From Parcubacteria group bacterium (GTDB taxonomy: Bacteria > Patescibacteriota > Minisyncoccia > Phycocordibacterales > Zambryskibacteraceae), in contig JBKJKY010000003.1 of assembly GCA_046597175.1 (NCBI GenBank), positions 1 to 55,267 on the forward strand: a DNA stretch of 55,267 nt, read 5' to 3'. Every line of letters starts with the position of its first letter. Position 1 is the first letter of the stretch. Position numbers and translations under genes: made by a program. The notes under the pieces were generated by a model that ran no database searches, had not been told where the DNA came from, and worked only from the letters and a program-made list of their open reading frames with translations. Shown piece after piece: positions 3,804 to 51,142 of the stretch.

Positions 3804-4278
3804 GGCGGTTTTTGTGACGCATTCGCATTGGATGGAGGTGCGCCGCGAGCGAGAGTGCGAGTGCAATAATGACTACGTTTTTGATGATGTACTGACCTTC
3901 AAGAGTCGGTACGAGGAATGATTGCCAAGTAATACTTGGAAGTAAGATAAGTGGCATTACTGTTGTAATCATATGGGGAAGGAGGAGGGCAATTGCAACT
4001 CGCTCAAGTCCGGGGATGAGAAATGTAATCCCAATAATCATTTCGTAGATACCAAAAAGGAGAATGAATTGGTCAAAGGTGATGAAGGGGAGTGTTTTCT
4101 CAAGGAGACTTGATACGAGGGGATTAGCTGGGCTCTCACCAAACACTTTCAGTATTCCAAACCAAAAAAATACGATAAAGATTGCAATGTGAGCCATTGG
4201 CAAACTGATTTTTCGGAAGAAGTGAATAATCGAACTGTCAACCGCTTCCATTTCACCTTGTATATTATGAGTATTCAT
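3796..4278 (-). CDS. DoxX/DUF417-like integral membrane protein
   Basis: 160 aa with 4 TM segments. The C-terminal EGQYIIKNVVIIALALSL resembles DoxX-family ends. The family assignment is tentative. Confidence 0.5.
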   Translation of the reverse strand: MNTHNIQGEMEAVDSSIIHFFRKISLPMAHIAIFIVFFWFGILKVFGESPANPLVSSLLEKTLPFITFDQFILLFGIYEMIIGITFLIPGLERVAIALLLPHMITTVMPLILLPSITWQSFLVPTLEGQYIIKNVVIIALALSLAAHLHPMRMRHKNRHA

Positions 4279-4284
4279 TCCTTC

Positions 4285-4290
4285 ATTCTA
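4285..4290 (-). promoter_or_regulatory. -10 hexamer TAGAAT, 6 nt upstream of the ATG at 4278 (leaderless-type promoter)
   Basis: The minus strand reads cgcggTAGAATgaaggaATG. Confidence 0.5.
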
Positions 4291-4293
4291 CCG

Positions 4294-4331
4294 CGTGATT
4301 TTACTCATGGCTAGCAATGAGTAAAATCACG
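4294..4331. promoter_or_regulatory. 38-bp near-perfect palindrome (candidate operator) abutting the -10 box
   Basis: cgtgattttactcat (4294-4308) and atgagtaaaatcacg (4317-4331) are perfect 15-bp inverted arms around ggctagca. Confidence 0.55.
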
Positions 4332-4506
4332 AAAAACGGATATCGAAAGACGAAAATCGAGGAGAACAAAAACTTACTAACTGGCCATGTCGCTCTAGGT
4401 ATACATTCCAATAATATTTGTCGATTTTTGTTATCCGAGTTTCGACCAACCGCACCTCAGTCTGTGGGTTGAAAAAAGCCTGTTTTTCTATAGTATTACC
4501 CTTGTT

Positions 4507-5853
4507 ATGACTATGATGAGCAAAAAAGAGCCATTTATCCTCGTTTTGGGGGATATTATTGCCTTTTACATGGGCCTATGGCTTATGCTCTTCTTGCGAT
4601 ACGCAGAACTTCCCTCAAAGGCTAACCTAACGCTACACCTTGTGCCATTTTCTATTTTGTTCGTGATTTGGTTCGGGGTCTTTTTTATCGCAGGCCTCTA
4701 TGAGAAACACACGCTCCTTATCAAGGAAAAGATTGCAGGAACAATCTTGCGTGCACAGATTACAAATAGCATTCTGGCAGTACTCTTCTTTTACTTCATT
4801 CCATTTTTTGGTATTGCTCCAAAAACAAATCTTTTTCTGACACTCCTAACTTCGTTTGGTTTTGTGATGGTCTGGAGGTTGTTTATATTTGCCGGTTTTG
4901 AGACTAGAACAAAAGAGAAAGCCCTGCTCATTGGTTCTGGCCCTGAGATGGCTGAGCTTGAAATGGAAGTGAACAATAACTCACGCTATGATGTGCAGTT
5001 CGTCTCATCACTTGACGTAAGTAATGCAAGTGCAGATGGTGTGCAAGCGGAGATGCAACAAAAAATATATACCGAAGGCATTTCAGTCATCGTTGCAGAC
5101 TTTCGCGATGAGAAAGTAGAGCCAGTACTACCAACGCTCTATAATCTTATTTTCTCTGATGTTCGGTTTGTTGATATGTATAAGCTGTATGAAGATATCT
5201 TCGATCGCATTCCGCTCTCTCTGGTGCGGTATAACTGGTTCCTCGAACACATAGCTGGATCGGCTGAAAGGGGGTATGATTTTTTGAAACGGACAATGGA
5301 CTTCACCGTCTCACTTCTGCTCGGTGTTGTTTCTCTGTTTTTCTATCCGTTTGTTTACCTCGCAATCAAACTGGAAGATGGCGGCCCAATTTTCTTTACG
5401 CAAGAACGCATTGGCAAAAATAATGAACTCATCGCAGTGAAAAAGTTTCGAAGTTTGGCTGTCCATAATAATCCAAATGGCATCGCTCTGAATCCGTTAC
5501 CGACAAAAGTAGGAGCATTTCTTCGTCGCACCCGAATCGATGAATTACCACAACTCTGGAGTGTTCTTATCGGAGATTTGTCGCTCATCGGTCCACGTCC
5601 CGAAATCCCGGCGCTCGTCGAGGTATATGAAAAAGAAATTCCGTATTACAACGTCAGGCATCTCATCAAACCAGGACTTTCAGGGTGGGCACAGCTCTAT
5701 CAATATGCACCGCCAAAGTTTTCGGCAAAGCTCGATGAAACCCGCATTAAGCTTTCGTATGATTTGTATTACATAAAACATCGCTCACTTGGACTCGATC
5801 TCAAAGTTGCTCTCCGAACTATCAAAACTCTTCTTTCACGGGAGGGAATTTAG
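4507..5853 (+). CDS. polyprenyl-phosphate sugar phosphotransferase (bacterial sugar transferase, WbaP/EpsL-like)
   Basis: 448 aa. N-terminal TM block plus a C-terminal domain with the hallmark DELPQLWSVLIGDLSLIGPRPE. Confidence 0.9.
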   Translation: MTMMSKKEPFILVLGDIIAFYMGLWLMLFLRYAELPSKANLTLHLVPFSILFVIWFGVFFIAGLYEKHTLLIKEKIAGTILRAQITNSILAVLFFYFIPFFGIAPKTNLFLTLLTSFGFVMVWRLFIFAGFETRTKEKALLIGSGPEMAELEMEVNNNSRYDVQFVSSLDVSNASADGVQAEMQQKIYTEGISVIVADFRDEKVEPVLPTLYNLIFSDVRFVDMYKLYEDIFDRIPLSLVRYNWFLEHIAGSAERGYDFLKRTMDFTVSLLLGVVSLFFYPFVYLAIKLEDGGPIFFTQERIGKNNELIAVKKFRSLAVHNNPNGIALNPLPTKVGAFLRRTRIDELPQLWSVLIGDLSLIGPRPEIPALVEVYEKEIPYYNVRHLIKPGLSGWAQLYQYAPPKFSAKLDETRIKLSYDLYYIKHRSLGLDLKVALRTIKTLLSREGI

Positions 5854-5994
5854 ACCCAGTTTTAAGTGGTCAGTGTTAAGTTTTAAGTAAGTTACTTCTC
5901 GCTTGTCTGATAATAGTTTTTGTGGTATTTTGCATTCGAAATCGTTCTTATTTGGCCTGGCATTCCAGGAACACAAAAAAGAGAGAGGTGCATC

Positions 5995-6537: not shown

Positions 6538-6552
6538 GCCCAAGTGTTTTAT

Positions 6553-6585
6553 AACCCCTCGCGTATCCGCGAGGGGTTATTTGTT
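6553..6585 (+). terminator. intrinsic terminator
   Basis: aacccctcgcg-tatc-cgcgaggggtt followed by a T-rich tract. Confidence 0.75.
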
Positions 6586-6612
6586 TGATTTTCCTCTTAA
6601 AATCCCTATACT
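6585..6612 (+). promoter_or_regulatory. sigma70-like promoter, leaderless geometry for secD
   Basis: TTGATT, a 16-nt spacer, TATACT, then 6 nt (gttccc) to the ATG at 6619. Confidence 0.55.
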
Positions 6613-6618
6613 GTTCCC

Positions 6619-7941
6619 ATGACTAAATACCGAATTGGAAGCTTTTTCCTCATTATTTGCGGGCTATTATTGGCTTTTTTCCTCAACGCTTCGCTCAAAC
6701 CGAATGCAAAACATCCCTTCAAGCTCGGGCTCGACCTTGTAGGTGGCACTGAACTTATCTACCGGGCAGATCTTTCTCGTATCGATACGCAGGACGTCTC
6801 TACTTCCATGGATGCGCTTCGGGAGGTTATCGAAAGGCGAGTAAACGTCTTTGGTGTATCTGAACCAATTATCCAAGTAGAACAAGCTGGACTTGTATCA
6901 GGGAATACCGATCATAGACTCATTGTTGAGCTTCCTGGTATCAGTAATACCGATGAGGCGATTGCCATGATTGGAAAAACTCCCGTGCTCGAATTTCGCC
7001 TTGAAAAAGAAGGACTTCAAAATTTGAAAGAAGAAGATATCAAGAATCTTTCGATTGATGATATCTATTCTCCTACAGGACTCGATGGAAGACTTCTAAA
7101 AAACGCACAACTTCAGTTTGACTCAACAACGCAAAAGCCGATGGTGGTACTTAACTTCAATGATGAAGGGAAGGCTCTCTTTGCAAAAGTAACGGGTGAA
7201 AATGTTGGACGGACACTTGCTATTTTCCTCGATGGAAAGATGATTCAAGCGCCACGAATTCAAGAATCGATTGATAATGGGACCGCTCGTATCACTGGAG
7301 GCTTCGACGCAAATACCGCAAAAGAAGCAGTAAAACAACTGAACTATGGTGCGCTTCCAGTACCTATCGAGCTCATTAGCCAGCAAACCATTGGTCCATC
7401 ACTCGGACAAGTCGCGCTCCACGCAGGACTCAGGGCTGGTGTTGTAGGATTTATACTACTCTCAATCTTTCTTATCCTCTGGTACCGTCTTCCTGGAATT
7501 GTTGCAACAATTGCGCTCGTGCTCTATGTTCTTATCTCACTTTCACTTTTCCTTATTATTCCGGTGACGCTTACTGCCGCTGGCCTTGCAGGGTTCATCC
7601 TTTCGATTGGTATGGCGGTTGATGCGAACGTGCTTATCTTCGAACGCATGAAAGAAGAGCTCCGCGCAGGAAAAAATCTTCACGATGCAATGCATGAAGG
7701 ATTCCACCGCGCATGGCTTTCGATTCGTGACTCAAACATCTCATCAATTATTACCGCAATTGTGCTCTTCTGGCTTGGAACATCAGCGATAAAAGGATTC
7801 GCACTCACGCTCGGTCTTGGAGTGGCTGTTTCAATGTTTACCGCAATCACTGCATCTCGAACATTCCTTTTCGCACTCCAGTCAAAGACCCTCGGAAAGG
7901 TTGCACGATTCTTATTCGGATCTGGTATTTCTAACGCTTAA
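6619..7941 (+). CDS. secD: protein translocase subunit SecD
   Basis: 440 aa. LGLDLVGGTELIY motif, a periplasmic-type domain and a C-terminal 6-TM block. Confidence 0.9.
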   Translation: MTKYRIGSFFLIICGLLLAFFLNASLKPNAKHPFKLGLDLVGGTELIYRADLSRIDTQDVSTSMDALREVIERRVNVFGVSEPIIQVEQAGLVSGNTDHRLIVELPGISNTDEAIAMIGKTPVLEFRLEKEGLQNLKEEDIKNLSIDDIYSPTGLDGRLLKNAQLQFDSTTQKPMVVLNFNDEGKALFAKVTGENVGRTLAIFLDGKMIQAPRIQESIDNGTARITGGFDANTAKEAVKQLNYGALPVPIELISQQTIGPSLGQVALHAGLRAGVVGFILLSIFLILWYRLPGIVATIALVLYVLISLSLFLIIPVTLTAAGLAGFILSIGMAVDANVLIFERMKEELRAGKNLHDAMHEGFHRAWLSIRDSNISSIITAIVLFWLGTSAIKGFALTLGLGVAVSMFTAITASRTFLFALQSKTLGKVARFLFGSGISNA

Positions 7942-8858: not shown

Positions 8859-8887
8859 AAAAAAACCGGCTTATGCCGGTTTTTTTA
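8859..8887 (+). terminator. intrinsic terminator
   Basis: A-tract, ccggc-ttat-gccgg, then a T-tract. Confidence 0.75.
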
Positions 8888-8901: not shown

Positions 8902-8907
8902 TATAAT
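8902..8907 (+). promoter_or_regulatory. -10 hexamer TATAAT, 6 nt upstream of the ATG at 8914
   Basis: gtaTATAATgactagATG. Confidence 0.5.
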
Positions 8908-8913
8908 GACTAG

Positions 8914-9459
8914 ATGAAGAAAACACTTTCATTCATCGCTGTAGCTGTGTTGCTGGTATTCGGAATGTACTTCCTGATTCATGGAAAGAAAACTGAGTAT
9001 GTAGCTCCGGAGCAAACCCCTTCAATGTTTCAGATTGAGGAGCCTTCTAAGCAATCAATGCCCGCAGGGGTAAAAGGCGAGTTTGGCGATGGAGAAACAC
9101 AAGCTATGCCGAGCCCAAAAGTAACACCGCCAAAAATTATTACTATCACCGGAAATTATTTTTATAGTGAAGATGTAAAGTCGGATTTTGTGGGAAAAAT
9201 TTGTTTTGAGCCAAGTACCGCAACTGCAGGAGTAGGGAAACGATTTTGTTTTGATAATGCTGATGAGGTCTTTGCTATTATTGGTATCACAAAAGGATTC
9301 AGTAATGGGAATACGCAGTGTACACAAACAGGCCCAGCCACAGTAACGGTAAAGAATTACACAAAGCTCACGGGGGATGCGGGCGGATATGACAGTGCAA
9401 CTTTGACCAAGTTTACCGATACCGGTAAGTCATCGTATCTTGCGTGTGGAAAGTATTAA
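8914..9459 (+). CDS. hypothetical membrane-anchored/secreted protein
   Basis: 181 aa. N-terminal hydrophobic anchor (FIAVAVLLVFGMYFLI) and a Cys-containing C-terminal domain. Confidence 0.5.
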   Translation: MKKTLSFIAVAVLLVFGMYFLIHGKKTEYVAPEQTPSMFQIEEPSKQSMPAGVKGEFGDGETQAMPSPKVTPPKIITITGNYFYSEDVKSDFVGKICFEPSTATAGVGKRFCFDNADEVFAIIGITKGFSNGNTQCTQTGPATVTVKNYTKLTGDAGGYDSATLTKFTDTGKSSYLACGKY

Positions 9460-9480: not shown

Positions 9481-9508
9481 TTGCGGGAATAGAAAACTAG
9501 AATATACT
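9481..9508 (+). promoter_or_regulatory. sigma70-like promoter
   Basis: TTGCGG, a 16-nt spacer, TATACT, then 8 nt to the ATG at 9517. Confidence 0.5.
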
Positions 9509-9516
9509 GTATCTAT

Positions 9517-10131
9517 ATGGCAATTGAATCACCGGTATTTGAAGTAAAGGCTGAAAGGGCAAAACGTGAGCCAACACCCCTCGAGGCTAAATCATTTCAT
9601 GAACTTACCGAAAAAGGTGCAGAGCGTGTAGAAATGGTAAAACAAGGTTTTGTAAACTTAAGAGATTCTGTCAAAGGTGGCATATCTCGCTTATGGTCAA
9701 AGGCAAAAGGGGTGGGAGAAACTCTTACGGAAGGAGCTTTCTCACTTCCCGAAGTTATTGCATCTACTCCAGAAATCGCTTCGCACCTCTTTGCAATGAG
9801 CAGACTAAAATTGCAGGATGGATACGAAAGTGTGGGTGATTTTGCAAATGGAAAAATGGCAGAAGCACGCTTTGGTATTGAAAAAACAAAGCTCGGTATC
9901 CTCGATGCTGCGAAAGATAAATACAATTCTATTGAAAATCGTGGTCTCGATGTACTTTCGAATTTTAATAATAGGGTAGCAGACATTAGTAATGGAGTCA
10001 GGGATAGGGTAGACACATATAGGGGTGATATCAATACCGAAAGAAGAGATCAGCAAATCGAAACCCTTAGAGACTTAATTGCAAAAGCGCAGGAGCTTGG
10101 ACTTAATGTGAATGTGCCTGGTATGGCTTAA
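9517..10131 (+). CDS. hypothetical protein (predicted helical)
   Basis: 204-aa ORF in an operon-like array. No recognisable motif. Confidence 0.45.
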   Translation: MAIESPVFEVKAERAKREPTPLEAKSFHELTEKGAERVEMVKQGFVNLRDSVKGGISRLWSKAKGVGETLTEGAFSLPEVIASTPEIASHLFAMSRLKLQDGYESVGDFANGKMAEARFGIEKTKLGILDAAKDKYNSIENRGLDVLSNFNNRVADISNGVRDRVDTYRGDINTERRDQQIETLRDLIAKAQELGLNVNVPGMA

Positions 10132-10939: not shown

Positions 10940-10967
10940 TTGACTCCTGCCTTCACATCTATATAAT
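10940..10967 (+). promoter_or_regulatory. rRNA promoter (consensus-like sigma70)
   Basis: TTGACT (10940-45), a 16-nt spacer, TATAAT (10962-67), about 295 nt upstream of the 16S 5' end. Confidence 0.7.
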
Positions 10968-11022: not shown

Positions 11023-11261
11023 CTTGTTACATAAAAAATTTGAGAACGCCTAAGGTTTTAAAGACACCTTAGGCTAGCAAGTCTCAAGAATTCTAATAAT
11101 GTGATTCCTTTCCGCTACATGCACCTTCGGTGGTGAACGTACAAGCAATACGGTGTAGTTGGAAGAAGTGAGTTAGAAATCAAATTCTTAACCGGATCAA
11201 ACCGAAGTCTAATATTCTTTGTTTTGTTCCGTTCCAAATGAAATGTTCAAACACATCATTT

Positions 11262-12724
<1,463 letters not shown>

Positions 12725-12906
12725 GAAAAACCCTTCTTTAAATTTATTTAAAGATTGAGTGCGTCGATATTGTGAATCTCGATCGAGTTCGCAATGGATG
12801 ATGATTATGAATCCAAAAACTAATTTGACTCATGGAAAGACATGCGCAGGTAATGCTCGAAAGGGTAATACTGAAGGGAACGGAGCAAAATAAAGAATAG
12901 TAGATC

Positions 12907-12936
12907 AAAACCACCCCGCTCACGCGGGGTGGTTTT
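12907..12936 (+). terminator. intrinsic (bidirectional-type) terminator about 190 nt after the 16S
   Basis: caaaa-ccaccccgc-tcac-gcggggtgg-tttt. Confidence 0.75.
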
Positions 12937-12963
12937 GCGTATGTAGGGTGTGAATAGTCACTA

Positions 12964-12992
12964 TTGACATAGTAGTATACTGTATGATAATA
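12964..12992 (+). promoter_or_regulatory. sigma70-like promoter
   Basis: TTGACA (12964-69), a 16-17 nt spacer, then GATAAT/ATAATA (12986-92). Confidence 0.6.
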
Positions 12993-12997
12993 TATAC

Positions 12998-13439
12998 ACC
13001 GTAACACTCACGAATACTCGGAGGAGAGATGAAGCGTCATTTGCTTTTGTCGATCGCGGGGTTGAAGCGTGTGGTGTGTCTGCTCTTTGTATCAACGGGT
13101 ATCCTGGAGGTGAACGTCCGGTATGGTTCACACCGTGCGGGATTCCCAATTTCGCTCGAACCGAAGAAGGTAGAGCTGTGCTGGTTGATGCGCCCTGGCG
13201 ATGCAGTTTGCGCGCTGGTGCTCTCAGCCCAGCTCTACTTCATTCTTTCAATTGTCTTCGTAAACGCTGGTCACTCAAACGATTTCTTTGATTGGCCGGT
13301 CAAAATGATGGTGCAGTTGCAGGGCCAGCTTCGAGGTTGGCGGTAGGGTAGTTGAGCGGAGTTAGCGAAGTGAGTGGTATCAGCAGTTTGCTGGGCCAGA
13401 GCTGGGGTCGGACAGAACATGTCCGGCCCCTTTCTATTT
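12998..13439 (+). ncRNA. promoter-to-terminator unit of unknown nature: GC-enriched structured RNA, or an atypical 105-aa ORF (13029-13346)
   Basis: Bounded by the 12964 promoter and the 13404 terminator. GC content and third-codon-position G/C bias differ from neighbouring genes. Long-range stem TAGAGCTG (13171-78) with CAGCTCTA (13230-37), plus many local hairpins. Confidence 0.3.
13404..13439 (+). terminator. intrinsic terminator
   Basis: ggggtcggac-agaacat-gtccggcccc (10 bp) followed by tttctattt. Confidence 0.75.
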
Positions 13440-13450
13440 GAAATGTTTTT

Positions 13451-13459
13451 TGGTATATT
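13451..13459 (+). promoter_or_regulatory. extended -10 promoter (TGgTATATT) upstream of the tRNA region
   Basis: ttttTGgTATATTctc. No clear -35 element. Confidence 0.4.
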
Positions 13460-13545
13460 CTCAGACTAGTCGCTTGTGACTAGTGGCCAGAAACTAGTAG
13501 AACGCGCGTAACTGTTTTGGTAGGTATAAAGGTAGAAAAAGTAAT

Positions 13546-13569: not shown

Positions 13570-13592
13570 TGAGACCGGGATGAGACCCGGTC

Positions 13593-13653: not shown

Positions 13654-13683
13654 ATTTGTGACAGAGAGTGCTGGGATACTTGT

Positions 13684-19337: not shown

Positions 19338-19338
19338 T

Positions 19339-40907: not shown

Positions 40908-43409
40908 ATGAAATGGAATTTTCTACCCAATATTTTTAAAGATACCGCAAGTGCCGAGCTAGATAGGATAGCTCCTATTGTGGCAAAGGTAAACGCTTTT
41001 GAGCCTCATATGAAGGCGCTGAGTGATGCTGATTGTAAAAACCAAACTCTTCTTCTCAAAGAAAGACTATCAAAAGGGGAGTCTCTCGACGATATTTTGC
41101 CTGAGGCATTTGCACTTGTCCGTGAAGCATCATTACGCACACTTGGGCAAAGACATTTTGATGTACAAATCATTGGAGGAATTGTTATGCATGAAGGCAA
41201 AATTGCGGAGATGCGTACGGGTGAGGGAAAAACTCTTGTTGCTACACTTCCTGCATACCTCAATGCTCTTACTGGGAGCGGTGTCCACGTGATTACTGTG
41301 AACGACTATCTATCGAAACGCGATGCGGTGTGGATGGGTCAGATTTATGATTTTCTCGGTCTTTCAGTGGGTATTGTGAATCATGACGCATCGTTTGTGT
41401 ACGACAATACTGCCCTCGAAGTGGATGCTGAGCGCGATGTTGTGGGAGGGTTTGAAGTAAAGAAAGAATTCCTCCGTCCTGTTTCTCGTAGAGATGCGTA
41501 CGCAGCTGACATAACCTATGGAGTGAACAGTGAATACGGATTTGATTATCTTCGTGACAACATTGAATACGAAGAGAGAAATCTTCGTCAGAGAGAGCAC
41601 GCATACGCAATTGTTGATGAAATCGATTCTATTTTGATTGATGAAGCTCGTACTCCGCTTATTATTTCTGCTCCCACTGCTGACTCTGAGAGTTTGTACA
41701 AAACATTTGCGAGTATTGCACTCAAGCTAAAACAAGAAACAGACTTTACCGTTGATGAAAAACTTAAAACAATCAGTTTGACCGATAGTGGTATTGATAC
41801 CGCAGAAAAATTACTTGGAGTAGAAAATATTTATACCGATGGTGGAATCAAGTACGTTCATCACCTAGAAACTGCTGTGCGGGCACAAGCGCTTTTCCAT
41901 ATCGATAAAGATTACGTCATTCGTGACGGTGAGGTAGTTATCGTAGATAGTTTTACGGGAAGACTTCAGCCGGGCCGTCGTTGGTCAGAGGGACTCCACC
42001 AGGCCATAGAAGCAAAAGAAGGGGTTGATGTGCAAAAGGAATCCCGTACCTATGCTTCGATAACCTATCAAAATTACTTCAGGCTCTACAAAAAACTCTC
42101 TGGTATGACCGGTACCGCCTCAACTTCTGCTGAGGAGTTCTATAAAGTGTATGGACTCGGTACAGTAACAATTCCACCCCACAGAACTATTGCACGTATT
42201 GATCACGATGATCTTATTTTCCAAACAGAAGCAGGAAAGTTTAAAGCCATTGCCCGTAAGGTGAAAGAATTAAATGAAAAGGGCCAGCCAGTTCTTATTG
42301 GTACCGTTTCGATTGAAAAGAATGAGCTTTTAAGTAGCTATCTTATTACAGAAGGGGTGCGTCATGAGATGTTGAATGCCAAAAACCACGAACGTGAAGG
42401 TGAAATTGTTGCTCAGGCTGGAAGTGAAAAAGCAGTGACTATTGCTACCAACATGGCAGGGCGCGGAGTAGACATCAAGCTCGGTGGTAATCCCGGCACA
42501 GAGCATTCCTATGAAGACATAAAAACTACCGGAGGACTCTTTGTTCTTGGAACTGAGCGTCATGATGCACGGCGCATTGATAATCAGCTTCGTGGTCGCG
42601 CAGGCCGCCAGGGTGATCCAGGAGAAACTCAGTTTTTTGTCTCTCTTGAAGATGATCTTATGCGCGTTTTTGCGTCAGATACTATCAAAAAAATGATGGG
42701 ACGCTTCGGTATTCCAGAAGATCAGCCAATTGAAAATAGACTTATTACGAATGCGCTCGAAAAAGCACAAGAAAGAATTGAGGGATTTAACTTCGATGCC
42801 CGTAAACACGTTCTTGAGTTTGATGACGTTCTCAACTTTCAAAGAAAGGTGGTGTATGAACGACGACGAGTACTCCTCGTCGGAGGTGAGGCTGGAGGAG
42901 AGCAATATCTCGAAACAGTACTCCTTTCGGCGGATGAAGAGACGCGTACTCAAATTGAAAACAAAAAAACGGAGCTTGGCAGTGAGGTGTTTCTGCGGAA
43001 TGTACGCACAGTTGGTCTTCAGGCGATCGATATGTTTTGGGTTGAGCACTTAGAAATGATGGATCATCTTCGAGGTACAGTAAATCTTCGTGCATATGGT
43101 CAACGTGAGCCACTTGTTGAATACAAACGTGAGGGCCTTACACTGTTTAAAGAAATGGAATCTGCAGCGGTAGCGGAGGTTTTGAGTCTCTTACCCCACC
43201 TTGGGGAGACGAAGGTTGGGCTAGGAACTATCGAGCTCAGTGAAATTCAGTCTGGTGCGGAGTCTATTACCAAACAAGGCAGTATGAGTCCTACTGACCG
43301 TGAGCCAGAGCGTAATGGTCCCTGCCCATGTGGATCAGGAAAAAAATGGAAGAAGTGCGGGATGATCGATACAAAGGAGCATCGCGAGTTTCTCGCAAAG
43401 AACGGATAA
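40908..43409 (+). CDS. secA: preprotein translocase ATPase SecA
   Basis: 833 aa. MRTGEGKTLVATLPAYLNAL, DEIDSILIDEARTPLIIS, TNMAGRGVDIKLGG and the C-terminal zinc motif CPCGSGKKWKKCG. Confidence 0.95.
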   Translation: MKWNFLPNIFKDTASAELDRIAPIVAKVNAFEPHMKALSDADCKNQTLLLKERLSKGESLDDILPEAFALVREASLRTLGQRHFDVQIIGGIVMHEGKIAEMRTGEGKTLVATLPAYLNALTGSGVHVITVNDYLSKRDAVWMGQIYDFLGLSVGIVNHDASFVYDNTALEVDAERDVVGGFEVKKEFLRPVSRRDAYAADITYGVNSEYGFDYLRDNIEYEERNLRQREHAYAIVDEIDSILIDEARTPLIISAPTADSESLYKTFASIALKLKQETDFTVDEKLKTISLTDSGIDTAEKLLGVENIYTDGGIKYVHHLETAVRAQALFHIDKDYVIRDGEVVIVDSFTGRLQPGRRWSEGLHQAIEAKEGVDVQKESRTYASITYQNYFRLYKKLSGMTGTASTSAEEFYKVYGLGTVTIPPHRTIARIDHDDLIFQTEAGKFKAIARKVKELNEKGQPVLIGTVSIEKNELLSSYLITEGVRHEMLNAKNHEREGEIVAQAGSEKAVTIATNMAGRGVDIKLGGNPGTEHSYEDIKTTGGLFVLGTERHDARRIDNQLRGRAGRQGDPGETQFFVSLEDDLMRVFASDTIKKMMGRFGIPEDQPIENRLITNALEKAQERIEGFNFDARKHVLEFDDVLNFQRKVVYERRRVLLVGGEAGGEQYLETVLLSADEETRTQIENKKTELGSEVFLRNVRTVGLQAIDMFWVEHLEMMDHLRGTVNLRAYGQREPLVEYKREGLTLFKEMESAAVAEVLSLLPHLGETKVGLGTIELSEIQSGAESITKQGSMSPTDREPERNGPCPCGSGKKWKKCGMIDTKEHREFLAKNG

Positions 43410-43992: not shown

Positions 43993-44016
43993 TGTGCATG
44001 ATAATATTATAGATAT

Positions 44017-44787
44017 ATGAGTGATGTTGAGAAAAAAAATGACGATAAAAAAGAAAAGAAACTCAGCTTCTTTGAACGTCTTATCGTTGGTAATGGAGTT
44101 CCAAAAACCCACACAAACAAATCCGTCCACCCCGTCATTTCGGAGGTTATTGAGGTTCGAAATTCGGAAGTGGTACCCCTTTCAAGCGACTCTCTTTCCG
44201 TACCAGAAGTCTCAGTCGCTTTGCGAGCAGAGGTAATTATTCCAGAGCATATTCTCCCGGATCCTGTTTTTCAGGGCACCCCAAAACTAGAAGTGGCAGA
44301 GTCACATATTGAGAAAGAAAAAGTCCCCGAGCCAGTAATAAAAAAACTCGCTATTACCGTTGTTGAAGATGCAGTGGAACAAGCTCTTGAAATCAAAGAA
44401 GAAAAGGGTGCTTTAAGAGAAACTACTTCGAAAGTTCATGAACCTGTTCCATTTGATGAGAGTGCGCTATTCGTACCACTGCGCAGTGTAAGAGTAGAGA
44501 CAAATCCGACCTCAGTGCGGGCTGAGATCTCTTCAGAAGGGCTTCTTTCGGAGGCGGAGTATTTTTATCTGGGTAATGGGAAAGCTCTTACATCGCTCGC
44601 TGACTTTCTTGTCTACATCGAATCTTTGTCAGATGGCGAGTGGAAAGACTCAGTACAAGATAGGAAATCTCATTTTGTTATATGGATTGAGACAGTGTTT
44701 GGTACGGGTAAGCTCGCACGGCTTATTGAATTGGCAGACTCACAAAAGGAAGCGGTGCTCTATATCCGCTCTTTTTTGGGAAAATAG
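44017..44787 (+). CDS. hypothetical protein (acidic/low-complexity N-terminal part, conserved-looking C-terminal ~80 aa)
   Basis: 256-aa ORF. TATTAT lies 6 nt upstream of the ATG. The C-terminal FYLGNGKALTSLADFLVYIESLSDGEWKDSV..HFVIWIETVF resembles a small domain I cannot name. Confidence 0.5.
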   Translation: MSDVEKKNDDKKEKKLSFFERLIVGNGVPKTHTNKSVHPVISEVIEVRNSEVVPLSSDSLSVPEVSVALRAEVIIPEHILPDPVFQGTPKLEVAESHIEKEKVPEPVIKKLAITVVEDAVEQALEIKEEKGALRETTSKVHEPVPFDESALFVPLRSVRVETNPTSVRAEISSEGLLSEAEYFYLGNGKALTSLADFLVYIESLSDGEWKDSVQDRKSHFVIWIETVFGTGKLARLIELADSQKEAVLYIRSFLGK

Positions 44788-45046
44788 TGGTTTCTGTACT
44801 CTAAAAAGCTTCATTAACCTTACTAAAAGTTTTGCCTGTATCCTCCTGTAATTAAAAATATAGTAAGATTTTGATTATTTTTTGTACTTCAATACTACAG
44901 TGCCATTTGCCAAGAGTTCACTCTCACAGTAAAGTGGAAAGGTAGTGTACATATCGGTAATGCTACATCAACCTTACAAGTATTTTATTTTTTGATTTAA
45001 AATTCTGACACCCCTATCTTTGAGGGGAGGGGATAGAAATTCTTTT

Positions 45047-45940
45047 ATGACAACACAAACGATTGTGACTCACAGTGGTGGTTTTCATGCGGATGACGTT
45101 TTTGCAGTTGCGACAGTATTATTGTCATTTCCCGAAGGAACAGAGTATTCGATAGTTCGCAGTCGAGAAGTTGAAGTTGCGAATTCAGCTGATGTTGTTG
45201 TAGATGTTGGGGGCGTCTATGATCCCTCTCTTAAACGATTTGACCATCATCAGCGTGGTGGTGCGGGCAGTCACGGTAATGCTATTCCATATGCATCATT
45301 TGGTCTTGTGTGGAAAGAGTATGGAGAGAAAATTTGTGGAAGTACCGAGATTGCAAAAAGTATTGAAGAGAAAATTGTTATGCCTATTGATGCGCTTGAT
45401 AATGGAGTGGAAATATCTAAATCAAATTTTGGGGGAATTCGGCCATTTAGTATTTCTGACTATCTCTATTCGTACTGGATAGACGATGACTCAGGTGATC
45501 TTGGTGCACAAATTATTTTTGAAGAAGTAGTGCTCCTTGCAAAAAATTTACTTCTGAGATTAATTGATAATGAACGTCGAGTCGCAATTGAGGAAGCAGA
45601 GGTACTAAAGCTTTATAACGAAGCAGTGGATAAACGAGTGATTGTTCTTCCGCGTTCCATGGCGTGTAGTCGTGTGCTTACATCAAAGGCTGAACCGCTC
45701 TACACTATATATCCTTCTGCTGGGGGTTCTCGGTATCAGGTAAAGTGTGTAAAAGTCTCATGTGATTCCTTTGAGCAGAGGCGCCCACTTCCTGCTTCGT
45801 GGGCGGGAAAAGTTGATTCTGAGCTTGCATCTGTGACCGGTGTCGACGATGCGGTCTTTTGCCACAATGCCCGTTTCCTAGTTGTTACTAAAAGCTTGGA
45901 CGGCGCTCTGTTACTCGTGAGAAAGGCATTAGAGGAATAA
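45047..45940 (+). CDS. MYG1/UPF0160-family metal-dependent hydrolase
   Basis: MTTQTIVTHSGGFHADDVFAV ... DVGGVYDP ... RFDHHQRG is diagnostic for MYG1. ATG at 45047 is preferred over the track's TTG at 45020. Confidence 0.85.
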   Translation: MTTQTIVTHSGGFHADDVFAVATVLLSFPEGTEYSIVRSREVEVANSADVVVDVGGVYDPSLKRFDHHQRGGAGSHGNAIPYASFGLVWKEYGEKICGSTEIAKSIEEKIVMPIDALDNGVEISKSNFGGIRPFSISDYLYSYWIDDDSGDLGAQIIFEEVVLLAKNLLLRLIDNERRVAIEEAEVLKLYNEAVDKRVIVLPRSMACSRVLTSKAEPLYTIYPSAGGSRYQVKCVKVSCDSFEQRRPLPASWAGKVDSELASVTGVDDAVFCHNARFLVVTKSLDGALLLVRKALEE

Positions 45941-45963
45941 TGTGCTAGAGTAGTCCCACAAAC

Positions 45964-46947
45964 ATGTTTGTCGATGAAATAACTATTAAAGCTCGGGCAG
46001 GAAACGGCGGAAACGGCGTTGTATTGTGGCGCCATGAAAAGGGCAAAGATATGGCTGGACCTGCGGGAGGTGACGGGGGTAAGGGCGGCAGTATCTACAT
46101 TGTCGCAGTGAGAGACCTTGGTCTCCTTGTCCGATACCGAACGGTGAAAGAGTTCACCGCAACCGGAGGGGAAGACGGTCAGAAAAAAAGCCAAAAAGGA
46201 AAAGATGGAGATGATCTCGATATCGCACTTCCGCTTGGTAGTATTGTTATCAATCAAACAACAAAGGAACGCTTTGTACTTGAAACGGAGGGGCAGAGAC
46301 TTCTTGTTCTAAATGGTGGGAGGGGTGGAATGGGGAATGAACATTTTAAGTCTTCGACTAATCGATCTCCAAAACAATCGACTGATGGTAAGCAAGGTGA
46401 AGAAGCTGAATTTTATATTGAACTTGAGCTTGTTGTTGATGCGGGGCTCATTGGACTTCCGAACGCCGGCAAGTCGAGCCTCGTAAATGCACTTACCAAT
46501 GCAAAAGCAAAAGTGGGAAGTTTTGAGTTTACCACTCTCGAACCAAACCTCGGAGCTTTTTATGGATTTGTGTTAGCAGATATTCCTGGACTCATTGAAG
46601 GTGCTTCAGAAGGAAAAGGTCTTGGATATAAATTCTTAAGACATATCAAGCGTACCAAAATGTTGCTCCACTGCGTTTCCGCAGAAAATGAAGATGTGCT
46701 TTCTGCATACGATGTTGTACGCGGTGAACTTTCTACATACAACACAGAACTTTTGCAAAAAAAAGAAATCATTATTTTGACAAAAATAGACCTTTTAACT
46801 GAAGAAGAGGTTACCGAAAAAATGCGATTACTCAAAACTCGAGGAGAGTTTGTCTTTTCAATCTCTACCATTGATGATGATTCAGTGCTCCAGATTTCCA
46901 AAGAGCTTTCATTGGCTTTGCAGGCAGAAGTAAAAAAAGAGCTCTAA
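45964..46947 (+). CDS. obg: GTPase Obg/CgtA (short form without a C-terminal extension)
   Basis: MFVDEITIKARAGNGGNGVV..GGDGGKGGSIY (Obg fold), GLPNAGKSSL (G1), DIPGLIEGA (G3), TKID (G4). Confidence 0.9.
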   Translation: MFVDEITIKARAGNGGNGVVLWRHEKGKDMAGPAGGDGGKGGSIYIVAVRDLGLLVRYRTVKEFTATGGEDGQKKSQKGKDGDDLDIALPLGSIVINQTTKERFVLETEGQRLLVLNGGRGGMGNEHFKSSTNRSPKQSTDGKQGEEAEFYIELELVVDAGLIGLPNAGKSSLVNALTNAKAKVGSFEFTTLEPNLGAFYGFVLADIPGLIEGASEGKGLGYKFLRHIKRTKMLLHCVSAENEDVLSAYDVVRGELSTYNTELLQKKEIIILTKIDLLTEEEVTEKMRLLKTRGEFVFSISTIDDDSVLQISKELSLALQAEVKKEL

Positions 46948-46986
46948 AAGTTCACAAATGCGCACTCTCTTGGTAGTATGAGGAAT

Positions 46987-48423
46987 ATGGCACGAGAAGA
47001 CTATATGCTCACCGTTGGACTTGAGGTCCATGCAGAGCTCAAAACCAGGACAAAGATGTTCTGTAACTCAAAGAATGATCCCGACGAAAAGCGCCCAAAC
47101 GTCAATATTTGCCCTGTTTGTATGGGTTATCCGGGGACCCTTCCAACCATTAACAAAGAGGCCGTTGCTCATGTAATCCGCATGGGTATCGCAATTGGCG
47201 GAACAATCGCTGATTTCACCGAATTTGACCGTAAAAACTACTTCTACCCAGATATTCCGAAGGGATACCAAATTTCACAGCTCAAATATCCTCTTGTGAC
47301 TGGTGGTACCTTAGCTGGCATTGCCATTACTCGGATACACCTTGAAGAGGATACTGCACGTTCAAGTCACTCGCAGGGGGATTTTAGCCTCGTAGACTAC
47401 AATAGAGCTGGCATTCCGCTTATGGAACTCGTTACTGAACCAGTCATTCGTTCTGCTACGGAAGCAACAACGTTTGCGAAAGAACTCCAGCTTCTCCTTC
47501 AAACTCTCAGTGCGGGTGATGCAAATATGGAAAAAGGAGAAATGCGTGTTGAGGCAAATATTTCTGTTTCAAAAACATCAGAATTTGGGACCAAAGTAGA
47601 AGTCAAAAACCTCAACTCATTTCGTGCTGTAGAGCGAGCTATCGCTTTTGAAATAGAACGCCACATTGATATTCTCGAAAAAGGGGAAAAGGTAATGCAA
47701 GAAACACGGGGCTGGGATGAGACCAAAGAGGTCACGTTTTCACAGCGGGCAAAAGAAGACTCACATGACTATCGATACTTTCCGGACCCTGACTTACCAA
47801 AAATTTGGATTTCAAAGTCTTCTGATTTAAACACTACAGTACTTGGACACGGTATGCCTGAATTACCATGGAATATGCGTGTTCGGTATGAATCAGAGTT
47901 AGGACTCAAAAAAGATGACATAGAATTTTTTGTTCGAGAAGGGGGGTGGAAGATGTATTTCGAAAGAATCATCGGCCACTCGAAAGATCGTACATTCGTA
48001 CAAACGGTAGCGAATTACCTTACTTCAGATTTAGCAGGCTTACTCAAAGCTGGAGGAAAAGGTAATGGAGAGGTAGATCTTTTTTCTCTTATCTCAACAG
48101 AAGACTTTCTTGCGCTTATGCATATGGTGACAAGTGGGGCGGTTTCTTCACGCGGCGCAAAAGACATTTTGAAGTTTATGTATGAAGGAGAAAAGAATCC
48201 AGAAAAGATTGCTACAGAAAAAGGTCTTATACAAAAAAATGATGAAGGGGAGATAACCCGTATCGCAGAAGAAATTATTGTTGCTAACCCGGGAGTTGTG
48301 GCAGAGTACAAAAATGGAAAAGTCTCAGTCATACAGTTCTTCGTGGGGCAGGGGATGAAAGCAATGAAAGGAGCAGGCAATCCGGCGGTGCTCAAAACAG
48401 TGTTTGAAAAACTTTTGAGTTAA
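46987..48423 (+). CDS. gatB: Asp-tRNA(Asn)/Glu-tRNA(Gln) amidotransferase subunit B
   Basis: VGLEVHAELKT...CPVCMGYPGTLP...RIHLEEDTA...VEVKNLNSF. The start could be 46978 or 46987; the latter lies 7 nt after TGgTAGTAT. Confidence 0.9.
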   Translation: MAREDYMLTVGLEVHAELKTRTKMFCNSKNDPDEKRPNVNICPVCMGYPGTLPTINKEAVAHVIRMGIAIGGTIADFTEFDRKNYFYPDIPKGYQISQLKYPLVTGGTLAGIAITRIHLEEDTARSSHSQGDFSLVDYNRAGIPLMELVTEPVIRSATEATTFAKELQLLLQTLSAGDANMEKGEMRVEANISVSKTSEFGTKVEVKNLNSFRAVERAIAFEIERHIDILEKGEKVMQETRGWDETKEVTFSQRAKEDSHDYRYFPDPDLPKIWISKSSDLNTTVLGHGMPELPWNMRVRYESELGLKKDDIEFFVREGGWKMYFERIIGHSKDRTFVQTVANYLTSDLAGLLKAGGKGNGEVDLFSLISTEDFLALMHMVTSGAVSSRGAKDILKFMYEGEKNPEKIATEKGLIQKNDEGEITRIAEEIIVANPGVVAEYKNGKVSVIQFFVGQGMKAMKGAGNPAVLKTVFEKLLS

Positions 48424-48480: not shown

Positions 48481-49113
48481 TTAGAACTCCTCAACCGATC
48501 CTTCAGTCATTATTCTAAATTCGATGCCGTCCTTTTCTAATAGTAGTTTGGGTAGGGTGTGAGCAGAGCCAAATCGAGTACCATCGTGGACCGGGAATGC
48601 AACCTTTGGTTTTAGATGGAGAGCATAATCAATAGCATCTCCAATTTTCATCCACGGACCTGAAACAGGAAGTGCAAGAATTTCGACTGGTCTTTGTGGA
48701 TCAGTAAATGCATCCCCAGGATACCAAAGCCTATTATCAATTAAAAAGCCGGTATTCAAAGAAAGGGGAATGGAACTATGCATTTGTGCATGAGTCTCTC
48801 CAAATACTAATAAAGAAACATTTCGAATCTGCTTGGTTTCTAAGTGGGAGATTTTTATGTGATCAATATTTTCAGCTAAAAGCAGGGAGCTAACTGAGTC
48901 ATTACAGATAATTACCAAGTCAGGATTTTTAATCATGAGTTCTCTGAGCGACTCAAGGTGGTAGTGGTCCTGATGTTCATGGGTGAATAGACAAAAGTCG
49001 ATAGCGGAAAGCATACTATGCTCGAGGACACTATAGCTACCAGGGTCAGTCAAAATACGGACACCTTTGGTTTCAATGAGGAGGCAGCAATGGCCAAGTT
49101 TCGTAATCTTCAT
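48481..49113 (-). CDS. MBL-fold metallo-hydrolase
   Basis: Starts at MKITKLGHCCLLIE. HxHxDH motif (FTHEHQDHYH). The track's longer start at 49191 adds a non-homologous hydrophobic leader. Confidence 0.8.
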   Translation of the reverse strand: MKITKLGHCCLLIETKGVRILTDPGSYSVLEHSMLSAIDFCLFTHEHQDHYHLESLRELMIKNPDLVIICNDSVSSLLLAENIDHIKISHLETKQIRNVSLLVFGETHAQMHSSIPLSLNTGFLIDNRLWYPGDAFTDPQRPVEILALPVSGPWMKIGDAIDYALHLKPKVAFPVHDGTRFGSAHTLPKLLLEKDGIEFRIMTEGSVEEF

Positions 49114-49305
49114 ATGCGCATAGTATACCAAATAAGATAGTAAAATGAGCATCAATCTGATGCTCATTTTACCGTATAAAAAGTGTTTCACAGATTTATT
49201 AGTATTTTTTCTCGTTCATCCGAGATGATATGGAAGAATATAGGTTTTAAGAGATTATTAGTACAAAAACAAACAGTAATGGATCGTTACGTATGCAGGC
49301 TTTGT

Positions 49306-49569
49306 CTACTCTTCATCTTCTAAATGCTTTACTACTAATTTTTTCATTCTACTTCGGGCGTTACTACCAGATTGACCACCATTTTCTATATCCTCTATGA
49401 TTTTAAGGAGGTTTTCAGCTTTGTATACACGATAATTGTTCATTGGATGTCTCTGTGCAGGGAACTTGCCATTCTTATCCCAATTTCGTAGAGTAAGAGG
49501 AGAAACGCCGAGTACGTACGCCGCTTCTTTAATTGTCACATATTTTTTGTATTCCATATTATTAGCCAT
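49306..49569 (-). CDS. MerR/excisionase-type helix-turn-helix DNA-binding protein
   Basis: 87 aa. YVTIKEAAYVLGVSPLTLRNWDKNGKFPAQRHPMNNYRVY. Confidence 0.75.
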   Translation of the reverse strand: MANNMEYKKYVTIKEAAYVLGVSPLTLRNWDKNGKFPAQRHPMNNYRVYKAENLLKIIEDIENGGQSGSNARSRMKKLVVKHLEDEE

Positions 49570-49731
49570 TTATTCTTTAATAAACCTTAATAAACTTATA
49601 CATAGAATTGTATATTCTTATGTGGAATTATCAATGTTTACATGTGTATATCTTTTAAACTTTTAAATTTTATTTTGTATAAATTTGGGTAGTTTTTTCT
49701 TTGTGGCTAAGTCAGCAGTTAGTGCCTTGAT

Positions 49732-49760
49732 AAATTCAAAATATTTATTATTTTGAATTT
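49732..49760. promoter_or_regulatory. palindrome with 12-bp arms in the divergent intergenic region (candidate operator)
   Basis: aaattcaaaata-tttat-tattttgaattt. Confidence 0.5.
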
Positions 49761-49887
49761 TATTTCATCTTTTTCATTGAAACATGCTAGTAATCGAGTT
49801 TTTTTGACAAGGGGAGTGATTAGATTTTTAGTAAAAATGATTTTGTTTTATCCACAGAAATTCATATCTAAAAAAACACCACAAATC

Positions 49888-49893
49888 TATAAT
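49888..49893 (+). promoter_or_regulatory. -10 hexamer TATAAT, 7 nt upstream of the ATG at 49901
   Basis: tcTATAATgtatgtaATGaat. Confidence 0.5.
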
Positions 49894-49900
49894 GTATGTA

Positions 49901-51142
49901 ATGAATTCTGATCTTTATTTCGACGGAAAAAAGTATATCTCGTCTAGCCGAGCTGCAAAAATAAGTGGCTATGTTAATGACTATATTGGTCAACTCTGCC
50001 GAGATGGAAAGCTCGACTGTCGAATGATCGGACGCTCTTGGTATGTATCTTTCGATTCCCTTATTGCTCATAAAAATTCAAACGGAAGTGGTTCAAAAAA
50101 TAAGTCTCAAAGATTAGTTAAAACAGAGGTAACTCCTACGGTAAATAAAGAAGAGGCTTTACTGGTCAATTTTGAGCCTCAGATTTCTGTGGTCCCCGCT
50201 CCCCCTGTTGTTGCGGAAGTGGCACTGCCTCAATTACTTGAAATGAAGAAAGAGGTCAGAGTTGTGGACTCTGCTTCAACTGGAGCTCTTCTCGAAAAGG
50301 TAAGCCCTGAATCTGAGGATCTTCCACTCTTTGCTTTTGACCTCAAGGCTCCACTTCTTGAAGAAAAAACTTTGAGTGATATTTCACTCATTTCGCCTGA
50401 GATAGAGGTGACACCCGAAGTTGTTCATAGGATTCCGATTAAGGCTGTGGGAGAAGTCGTACAAGTTTCCGAAAAGCAAGTTGATGAAATTAAAAATTCT
50501 GCACCCACCTCAGAACCAATTGTTTCTGAGTATTTTGCTGATGCGAAATTTATTACACCTATCCTCTCTACGGTTACTACGGTTACCATGCCTTCTACTC
50601 ATCACCAAGTGTTTGGAAAAAGATTTCCTACAGTTGCGCTCGGTGTGGTGGCGGTACTTATATCATTCCTTGTATTTAATCTCATGACAGAAACGGGTGT
50701 TAGTAATCGTGAGACTGTTGCGGTAGAGCGCCCTGCCCCCGCTGCATATCAGGGTGTGGATCTCACCGCAAGCGTTGTAAGCGGAGCTTGGAACGTTCTT
50801 GATACTGTCTCAGAGAAAATATATTTGACAGTAAATGATTGGACAGGTGGAGCGCAGAAAACAATTCTTGCATTCGTAAAGAGCAGAGGTTCACCGCCGA
50901 AATTATATACGAACGATCCTCCAACTCTTGTCGCTGATGAGAGGCCAAGTGAAGGAATGATCGTAGTGCCAGTTACCGCGAAGACTGATAAGGAAGCGAC
51001 AATTGCAAAAATTAAAAGTACGTTCTCTGATGAAGTTACCGTGGAGCCAGGAGCAGATGGGTCAGATGGTGTCATAAAGCCAGTGTTTAAAAGAAGTAAG
51101 GGCGACGACTATCTCTATGTGCTCGTGCCGATTAAAAACTAA
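49901..51142 (+). CDS. membrane-tethered protein: N-terminal excisionase/MerR-like HTH, one TM segment, extracytoplasmic C-terminal domain
   Basis: YISSSRAAKISGYVNDYIGQLCRDGKLDCRMIGRSWYVSFDSL (HTH). TM segment FPTVALGVVAVLISFLVFNLM about 240 aa in. About 150 aa lie outside the membrane. The start could be 49892 or 49901. Confidence 0.6.
   Translation: MNSDLYFDGKKYISSSRAAKISGYVNDYIGQLCRDGKLDCRMIGRSWYVSFDSLIAHKNSNGSGSKNKSQRLVKTEVTPTVNKEEALLVNFEPQISVVPAPPVVAEVALPQLLEMKKEVRVVDSASTGALLEKVSPESEDLPLFAFDLKAPLLEEKTLSDISLISPEIEVTPEVVHRIPIKAVGEVVQVSEKQVDEIKNSAPTSEPIVSEYFADAKFITPILSTVTTVTMPSTHHQVFGKRFPTVALGVVAVLISFLVFNLMTETGVSNRETVAVERPAPAAYQGVDLTASVVSGAWNVLDTVSEKIYLTVNDWTGGAQKTILAFVKSRGSPPKLYTNDPPTLVADERPSEGMIVVPVTAKTDKEATIAKIKSTFSDEVTVEPGADGSDGVIKPVFKRSKGDDYLYVLVPIKN

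Follow-up and report, generated by a model that had tools for sequence, protein, structure and literature searches.

How does a ribosome find the start codon when its 16S rRNA offers no Shine-Dalgarno (SD) partner? About half of all Parcubacteria have a 16S rRNA whose 3′ end carries no CCUCCU, and SD helices are probably not formed in these organisms according to Tsurumaki et al. (2022, PMC9297842), who also report that loss of the ribosomal protein uL1 largely overlaps loss of the anti-SD sequence; how mRNAs are initiated without the anti-SD is not stated in that paper. We analyzed a 55-kb stretch of DNA (positions 1–55,267, here called the window; all coordinates are those of the whole stretch) whose 16S rRNA gene is one of these anti-SD-less cases, and our analysis adds a proposal for how its mRNAs might be initiated. 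Hexamers of the −10 type lie 5–9 nt upstream of the ATG at the gene starts described below. We judge it quite probable that these −10 boxes abut the start codons of mRNAs that are most likely leaderless, and that genes inside operons are started without SD pairing.

The window has a GC content of 40–46%, with almost every gene on the + strand. Its GatB protein (gene at 46987–48423) finds its best matches, at 52–62% identity, in metagenome-assembled genomes (MAGs) labeled Paceibacteria, Nomurabacteria, Zambryskiibacteria and Kaiserbacteria. Judged by these matches, the host is therefore a member of the Patescibacteria, or Candidate Phyla Radiation (CPR), of the Parcubacteria (Paceibacteria) type. 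Among public runs, the window sequence is present in one only, a soil metagenome.

Promoter-like hexamers adjacent to start codons

The original prediction placed a −10 hexamer 5–9 nt before 12 ATGs, and all 12 hexamer-spacer-ATG strings are found on the window, position and strand included. Specifically, TAGCCA-17-TAGAAT-6-ATG (4276–4313, − strand) precedes a 160-residue membrane protein whose ATG at 4278 is the first start codon of any kind, three codons past an in-frame stop. On the + strand, TTGATT-16-TATACT-6-ATG (6585–6621) leads into secD (ATG 6619), with a terminator hairpin (6551–6580) directly before the putative promoter, and TATAAT-6-ATG (8902–8916) leads into a gene whose ATG at 8914 immediately follows an in-frame TAG, with a terminator hairpin upstream at 8859–8886. 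Two further strings are TTGCGG-16-TATACT-8-ATG (9481–9519; ATG 9517) and TTTCCA-16-TATACT-5-ATG (15630–15665; ATG 15663); the latter predicted promoter overlaps the 3′ end of the preceding gene because the gap is only 20 nt. TATTAT-7-ATG (20791–20806; ATG 20804) stands before a GT4 glycosyltransferase that opens a long glycosyltransferase cluster, TGtTAGAGT-6-ATG (34726–34743; ATG 34741) before a methyltransferase, and TGgTAGAAT-9-ATG (40890–40910; ATG 40908) before secA, which has a terminator hairpin (40808–40825) and a T-run upstream. The remaining sites, also on the + strand, are TATTAT-6-ATG (44005–44019; ATG 44017), 24 nt past the previous gene; TAGAAA-7-ATG (45034–45049; ATG 45047) of a MYG1/UPF0160 gene, a weak site; TTCACA-17-TGgTAGTAT-7-ATG (46951–46989; ATG 46987) of gatB; and TATAAT-7-ATG (49888–49903; ATG 49901) of a 413-residue protein with no assigned function.

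A Pfam scan, which took in about 20 of roughly 50 window genes, confirmed the gene names secD, secA and gatB and identified the glycosyltransferase and the methyltransferase. Also present are the two −35 elements noted earlier (TTGATT-16 at 6585 and TTGCGG-16 at 9481) and the TGn extensions at 34741, 40908 and 46987. Nine of the 12 hexamers are within one middle mismatch of TATAAT, and TAGAGT and TAGTAT, which are weaker, carry TGn. Nine of the 12 ATGs are the first start codon of any type, 0–9 codons past an in-frame stop. The description of the genes as operon-leading is correct only in part: 15663, 44017 and 46987 lie 20–39 nt behind a same-strand gene.

For counting, an automatic gene set was made from 48 long, non-overlapping open reading frames (ORFs), each taken from its first ATG; strict counts are of −10 hexamers at a spacer of 5–9 nt before the ATG, and the loose pattern is TANNNT. 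Strict hexamers precede nine window genes, against 2.05 expected when the counting interval is slid to 14–59 nt upstream (P = 4e-5) and 1.87 when the 40 nt upstream are dinucleotide-shuffled, with none of 2000 shuffles reaching nine. The enrichment over shuffled controls on which the prediction had been staked is thus clear for strict hexamers and marginal for the loose pattern. Triads of −10, 5–9 nt and ATG occur 36 times on both strands, and ten of them are automatic gene starts, while gene starts make up only 2.7% of all window ATGs (Fisher p = 1.3e-8). The triad list yielded two sites that had been missed, both on the − strand: TGgTATACT-8-ATG (49111–49130; ATG 49113) of an MBL-fold hydrolase and TGcTATGAT-7-ATG (31560–31578; ATG 31562) of a GMC/FAD oxidoreductase.

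Recurrence of the geometry in relatives

Two sets of sequences extend the count beyond the window. Set 1 comprises 42 Patescibacteria loci and 35 non-CPR control loci, fetched through GatB. Its leading genes have 55 strict hexamers, against 18.3 expected from spacers 15–40 (p = 3e-12), and its short-gap genes 21 against 5.2, with a peak at spacer 6; the 35 control loci are without signal (7 versus 9.4). A CPR 16S gene occurs in none of the set 1 loci. Set 2 comes from a metagenome scan with the helix-45 sequence of the window and holds 120 contigs with 16S 3′ ends; among the 119 that match the helix-45 pattern, 98 lack CCUCC, 17 have it and four are variant. The 346 genes flanking anti-SD-less 16S genes carry 68 strict hexamers versus 17.1 expected (p = 1.5e-20), or 63 versus 16.0 after removal of near-duplicate proteins (p = 5e-19). 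TANNNT at spacer 5–9 precedes 32–34% of all genes in relatives versus 9% in non-CPR loci. Among all 6-mers at 3–12 nt upstream of 871 ATGs, examined without prior choice of motif, TATAAT is the most enriched (58 versus 13.1), and decoy patterns of similar base content, with letters rearranged or swapped, show no comparable enrichment. The −10/ATG signal is lineage-wide.

The geometry is also kept gene by gene. The −10 of secA lies exactly 9 nt before the ATG in four of four genomes (the window and loci L006, L012 and L011); TGn is present in two of these, and the sequence between −10 and ATG varies. In the case of the 49901 protein, Met-1 is where the alignment of four orthologues begins, and TATAAT or TATACT lies 7–9 nt upstream in three of them, so that with the window included a −10 is found at 7–9 nt in four of five genomes. 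Roughly half of the Patescibacteria gatB orthologues have, by eye, a −10 at 6–8 nt upstream, often an extended one. That orthologues retain the exact geometry speaks for selection on it.

Start codons change as a consequence of the rule, and the revised starts proposed at 45047, 46987 and 49901 are backed by Pfam profile starts in the first two cases and by the orthologue alignment in the third. The MYG1_exonuc profile begins at residue 5 from ATG 45047, which is favored as the start over TTG 45020, and the GatB_N profile begins at residue 9 from ATG 46987, with only 2–4 residues ahead of a conserved Tyr in GatB orthologues. The upstream ATGs of gatB (46978) and of the 49901 gene (49892) lie inside the respective −10 boxes and would for that reason go untranscribed. 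The SecA_DEAD profile begins at residue 8 from ATG 40908. At 49113 (− strand), position 1 of the Lactamase_B_3 profile aligns to residue 2, and at 31562 (− strand) Rossmann-fold profiles begin at residues 3–4; as these N-termini match the starts predicted by the rule, they are an independent test of it.

Perfect DnaA boxes (TTATCCACA) occur only twice in the window, at 49848–49856 and 40510–40518, both intergenic. The box about 45 nt upstream of the 49901 gene is kept before its orthologues in L003, L005, L012 and L015. No GC skew switch was found in the window, and the box therefore looks like DnaA-box regulation rather than an origin.

Replacement of the anti-Shine-Dalgarno sequence

The 16S rRNA gene (11261–12724, + strand; Rfam SSU_rRNA_bacteria, 1375.8 bits, model positions 1–1533) continues after helix 45 as ...GGAAGCUGCUCGUGG-AGUAAUUCAAUUG, at the position where other bacteria have GGAUCACCUCCUUA. 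The CCUCC anti-SD is absent, and SD pairing is therefore unavailable. No CCTCCT is found on the + strand from the 16S end at 12724 up to 14353, in the stretch ahead of the next gene, so that the motif has not been moved by an insertion, and such a displacement is ruled out. The original prediction, which had taken the anti-SD to be missing, is borne out here by the tail AGUAAUUCAAUUG and the absence of CCTCCT after it.

The anti-SD has been swapped for a conserved tail and not merely deleted (window 12713–12735; loci L081–L200). The tail family of the window 16S is found in 98 of the 119 metagenome contigs that match the helix-45 pattern. It takes three conserved RNA forms, A(A/G/U)UAAUUCAAUUUGAAA, AAUAUUUCAAG.GAA and AUCAUUUUUUUAAAAA, which read as DNA A(A/G/T)TAATTCAA(T)TTGAAA, AATATTTCAAG.GAA and ATCATTTTTTTAAAAA. 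Variants such as TTCCAAATGGAA and TCCAATCGGA covary, which suggests a small hairpin of the UUCAA-UUUGAA type. The rRNA-derived metatranscriptome contigs of relatives pass through the tail and end about 17 nt after helix 45.

The mRNA side agrees with the 16S end. The share of genes with an SD core 5–16 nt upstream is 4% in the window, 10% in CPR and 35% outside CPR. The window genes have no SD positional peak, while the expected peak is present in the 35 non-CPR loci, and SD enrichment is found at no gene class here. A replacement anti-SD formed by the new tail is ruled out as well, since 5-mers complementary to it are not enriched upstream of the ATG (300 versus 298.6 expected).

Two observations concern the rRNA genes themselves. 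At gathering thresholds, Rfam finds one 16S gene and one tRNA-Ile gene (13826–13899) in the window and no 23S rRNA; because no 23S follows the 16S and tRNA-Ile, the rRNA genes are not linked. In L138, from a related groundwater Parcubacterium, the 16S gene is interrupted at 4525–5467 by an insertion of about 942 nt that is missing from RNA-derived contigs of four metatranscriptomes. This insertion could be an intervening sequence that is cut out of the rRNA, or the contigs could come from relatives without it.

Promoter or ribosome-binding site

The ATG-proximal hexamers behave as sigma-70 promoters would, and not as AT-rich filler. TGn stands before 39% of them; among −10-like hexamers that lie further upstream, the share is 14% (p = 4e-6). 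At 23–21 nt upstream the bases read T, T, then G/T (T 0.54/0.46, G 0.28), as for the TTG of a −35 element, which is expected there at 17-nt spacing. A pyrimidine directly precedes the ATG in 76%, in keeping with Y(−1)R(+1), the usual start-site rule. The modal spacer of 6, a sharp peak, equals the distance from the last −10 base to +1. An ungapped logo of the upstream regions displays only an A at −11 and a T at −1, and is so sparse because the spacer varies. The consensus of the hexamers is that of the predicted promoter of the organism's own 16S gene, TTGACT-16-TATAAT (10940–10967, + strand; 11 of 12 matches), which shows, as far as a promoter can be read from its sequence, that canonical sigma-70 promoters are in use. 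The spacer peak, TGn, the −35 signal, Y(−1)A(+1) and the silent controls thus support the leaderless interpretation that had been put forward.

In the mechanism that we propose, the hexamers would be the −10 boxes of ordinary sigma-70-type promoters, often extended (TGnTATAAT) and with a weak −35. RNA polymerase would start at the A of the AUG, or 1–3 nt before it, and the resulting mRNAs would have neither a 5′ untranslated region nor a ribosome-binding site. The 5′-terminal AUG may be bound directly by a 70S ribosome or by a 30S-IF2-fMet-tRNA complex, by analogy with the leaderless mRNAs of Actinobacteria, Deinococcus and E. coli cI. This layout would apply to about half of the promoter-capable starts in the window; operon-internal genes, which lie 1–10 nt behind the preceding stop or overlap it, would be served by termination-reinitiation.

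The same hexamers could in principle be read by the ribosome. A TATAAT-like element would then be a non-SD ribosome-binding or enhancer site on leadered mRNAs, like the motif of Bacteroidetes (GeneMarkS-2 group B), and an altered ribosome would recognize it through protein S1 or the new 16S 3′ tail. The spacing of 5–9 nt is optimal for a ribosome-binding site too, strict hexamers are commonest (35%) before genes 11–39 nt behind a same-strand neighbor, which is also where such a site would sit, and the replacement tail is kept across dozens of contigs and present in rRNA-derived metatranscriptome contigs. However, the complement of the tail is not enriched upstream of ATGs, and a TGn at 39% of hexamers, a −35 signal 17 nt upstream and Y(−1)A(+1) would be of no use to a ribosome. 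Furthermore, the motif is identical to the −10 of the rRNA promoter, and it is rare before tightly coupled genes (gap of at most 10 nt), where the hexamer is found in 7.8% versus 16–35% elsewhere, with TGn in one of 13. We consider a ribosome-binding element improbable.

Leadered starts and the case against leaderless transcripts

By our own curated tally, the window has about 30 promoter-capable starts, of which about half are without leaderless geometry. Thirteen have a good −10 at 5–9 nt, and two have a weak one (45047, TAGAAA, and 49569 on the − strand, TATTAA). Four have a −10 at 10–13 nt (4507, 45964, 31616 and 36720 on the − strand), with predicted leaders of 3–6 nt. Two of these near-leaderless arrangements are TGcTAGAGT-12-ATG (45943–45966, + strand; ATG 45964) of obg, with a predicted leader of about 5 nt, and TTGAAA-16-TAGTAT-10-ATG (4469–4509, + strand; ATG 4507) of a sugar transferase, with one of about 3 nt. 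At least four starts have clear leaders: ATG 36774 (32 nt), behind TTTCCA-16-TGaTAGAAT (36714–36776, + strand) and without an SD; ATG 37653 (88 nt), behind TTGGCA-18-TGnTATAGT (37535–37655, + strand) and also without an SD, of a gene with leaderless-type orthologues in L012 and L011; 13029; and a small ORF at 40696. The remaining starts have no clear promoter.

A gene for a VirD4/TraG-type type IV coupling protein (16114–18150) has TATAAT 5 nt before TTG 16114, and the same hexamer lies 17 nt before the first ATG (16126). Translation would begin either at the TTG of a leaderless mRNA, a rare non-AUG case, or at the ATG behind a leader of about 10 nt.

Starts of the leadered kind raise the possibility that the ATG-proximal −10 boxes are real but minor, and that most transcripts are leadered and arise from upstream promoters or by read-through. 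Three of the 12 sites are 20–39 nt behind a same-strand gene with no terminator between, and several promoters in the window are clearly leadered (36774, 37653 and 13029). Against this, terminator hairpins directly precede 6619, 8914 and 40908, a leadered transcript would have no SD/anti-SD pairing to locate its AUG, and the exact geometry is kept in orthologues, arguing for selection. We think it unlikely that the adjacent promoters play so small a part.

Besides the frequency of the hexamer in the 11–39-nt gaps, several results weigh against leaderless transcripts as the rule. The hexamer at 45047 (TAGAAA) is poor, lacks the final conserved T and is not a TANNNT. Spacers of 8–9 nt (9517 and 40908) predict a 2–3-nt leader and not a strict 5′ AUG. 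The loose pattern is marginal, at 11 genes versus 5.2–7.1 expected (P = 0.007–0.08). A generic −35/−10 two-hexamer scan gave 22 versus 30.6, 44 versus 44.3 and 36 versus 27.5 in shuffles; it is uninformative overall because its totals are no higher than those of shuffles, and it recovers six of the −10/ATG sites independently. Contigs that bear the anti-SD show some signal also (7 strict hexamers versus 3.1). The share of genes with the signal is 34% on anti-SD-less and 22% on anti-SD-bearing contigs, a difference that is not significant with 63 genes on the latter (p = 0.08), and the link to anti-SD loss is therefore not exclusive within CPR. None of the RNA runs searched contains the window, nor does any contain locus L024. 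The groundwater metatranscriptomes X4–X8 and X10 hold only rRNA-derived contigs of relatives, with no mRNA contigs of L138 or L153.

Chance, by which AT-rich intergenic DNA would give TANNNT near ATGs and favorable cases would be picked, can point to the loose count (11 versus 7.1 in shuffles, P = 0.08), to the one hexamer of 12 that is not a TANNNT and to two sites that fit only via a second ATG, but it is most improbable and is rejected as the origin of the strict geometry by shuffles (0 of 2000 reach the observed count) and replication (p = 3e-12 and 5e-19 in two independent sets, with silent non-CPR controls), as well as by the positional peak at spacer 6.

Operon-internal genes

Five gene junctions inside operons are of the form TAA-T-ATG, with a gap of +1 (19337, 24136, 25884, 29367 and 43409), and none of them is a usual ATGA or TAATG overlap. 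Other internal junctions have gaps of +4 to +8 or overlaps of 8–20 nt. Of the same-strand pairs in anti-SD-less relatives, 16.5% are separated by +1 to +10 nt, versus 8% in non-CPR loci. Internal genes are packed so tightly that no room is left for an SD, and we infer from this packing that they are probably translated by termination-reinitiation.

About 15 same-strand genes fill 18195–34568, and the three that were scanned are two GT4 glycosyltransferases and a GMC oxidoreductase. The run is probably a cell-surface glycan cluster.

Other elements near the sites

A strong predicted promoter, TTGACT-17-TGcTATTAT (39963–39991), opens a highly structured stretch of about 250 nt without ORFs (39963–40250). 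Within it, GUGAGUGCG and CGCACUCAC pair over a long range, CCCCGCUAAC occurs twice, and a terminator hairpin of 20 bp spans 40205–40248. The stretch has no match in the fetched loci and none in Rfam at gathering thresholds; with permissive thresholds, the gaps 12700–14400 and 39800–40950 give sub-threshold matches at chance level only. It is a candidate small RNA of no known family. Short tandem (A)TACGAAA repeats lie on both sides of it (39846–39880 and 40264–40290).

The small ORF at 40696–40794 encodes 32 residues rich in Lys and Ala (MAAKKKKVAKKKAPARKTKKKAAPKRKASKRA), behind an A-rich leader with no SD, and has its own terminator (40808–40825 and T-run). Its product may be a small basic protein that binds nucleic acid. 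A further strong predicted promoter, TTGACA-18-TGaTAATAT, lies in 12964–13346, in the interval from the 16S gene to the tRNA-Ile gene. It is followed by a leader of about 30 nt and a 105-residue ORF at 13029, and the last bases of the leader, directly at the ATG (0 nt), are GGAGGAGAG. In a genome that lacks the anti-SD, so classical an SD is unexpected. The 105-residue product has no Pfam match, and the ORF may be spurious or recently acquired.

Discussion

The closest known arrangement is that of the genomes placed in group C by Lomsadze et al. (2018, PMC6028130), which include M. tuberculosis, other Actinobacteria and Deinococcus deserti. There, TANNNT lies 6–8 nt before operon-first start codons in 25–50% of operons, and the mRNA begins with the start codon. 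The window has the same −10/ATG geometry (spacer peak 6, range 5–9) at a similar fraction of starts, the 13 good and two weak sites among about 30 falling in the 25–50% range (PMC6028130). In group C genomes, however, the anti-SD is retained, and internal as well as leadered genes rely on SD sites, whereas the window 16S has no anti-SD and an SD core precedes 4% of window genes versus 35% of non-CPR genes. The dual model of group C, with a promoter signal for first genes and SD for the rest, is inapplicable because the SD system is absent here. Under genetic code 11, moreover, group C is nearly all high-GC and has mapped transcription start sites; the present case has a GC content of 42% and transcription starts that are predicted.

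Group B genomes (Bacteroidetes/FCB) resemble the window in their little or no SD use and in an AT-rich signal near the start codon. They keep the anti-SD, and their motif, which is no promoter element, precedes every gene, on mRNAs that have leaders (PMC6028130). In contrast, the motif described here has TGn, −35 and −10 architecture and is depleted before tightly coupled genes. In low-GC, code-4 genomes of the Mycoplasma type within group C, 30–60% of genes are predicted to be leaderless (10.1101/2022.07.25.500264). Like the present lineage, these are small, AT-rich, reduced genomes with many predicted leaderless genes; they differ in using code 4 and in still showing SD-type ribosome-binding-site models, whereas the window uses code 11 and has no anti-SD. 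Full-text searching found no literature that links leaderless mRNAs with Parcubacteria, Patescibacteria, CPR or Saccharibacteria. The leaderless mechanism and the loss of the anti-SD in Parcubacteria are both already known; their connection was not found in the literature searched.

Some consequences are practical. Gene-finding programs whose models come from SD sites will put starts in the wrong place in such genomes, and at least five window starts move (45047, 46987, 49901, and 49113 and 31562 on the − strand). With the −10-to-ATG rule, starts could be predicted cheaply and accurately in thousands of Parcubacteria MAGs. The sequences also yield a promoter consensus for an uncultured phylum, TGnTAtAaT with a weak −35, which would be useful for work on regulation and, when hosts have been brought into culture, for expression constructs.

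For the biology of the group, leaderless initiation would be a concrete and testable answer to the question of how anti-SD-less ribosomes find starts, which Tsurumaki et al. (2022) left open. Because anti-SD-bearing contigs also show some signal, the data suggest that the cells came to depend on leaderless mRNAs and coupling before the anti-SD was lost, and that this weakened selection for it. A broader reading, to which we give slightly less than an even chance, is that the lineage does without any SD/anti-SD pairing: a promoter would stand against the AUG at nearly every sufficient gap, mRNAs would be mostly leaderless with the rest served by reinitiation, and the 16S tail would be a conserved hairpin. 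If that is true, these Parcubacteria would be a free-standing bacterial clade whose translation initiation is closer to that of archaea and mitochondria than to that of textbook bacteria.

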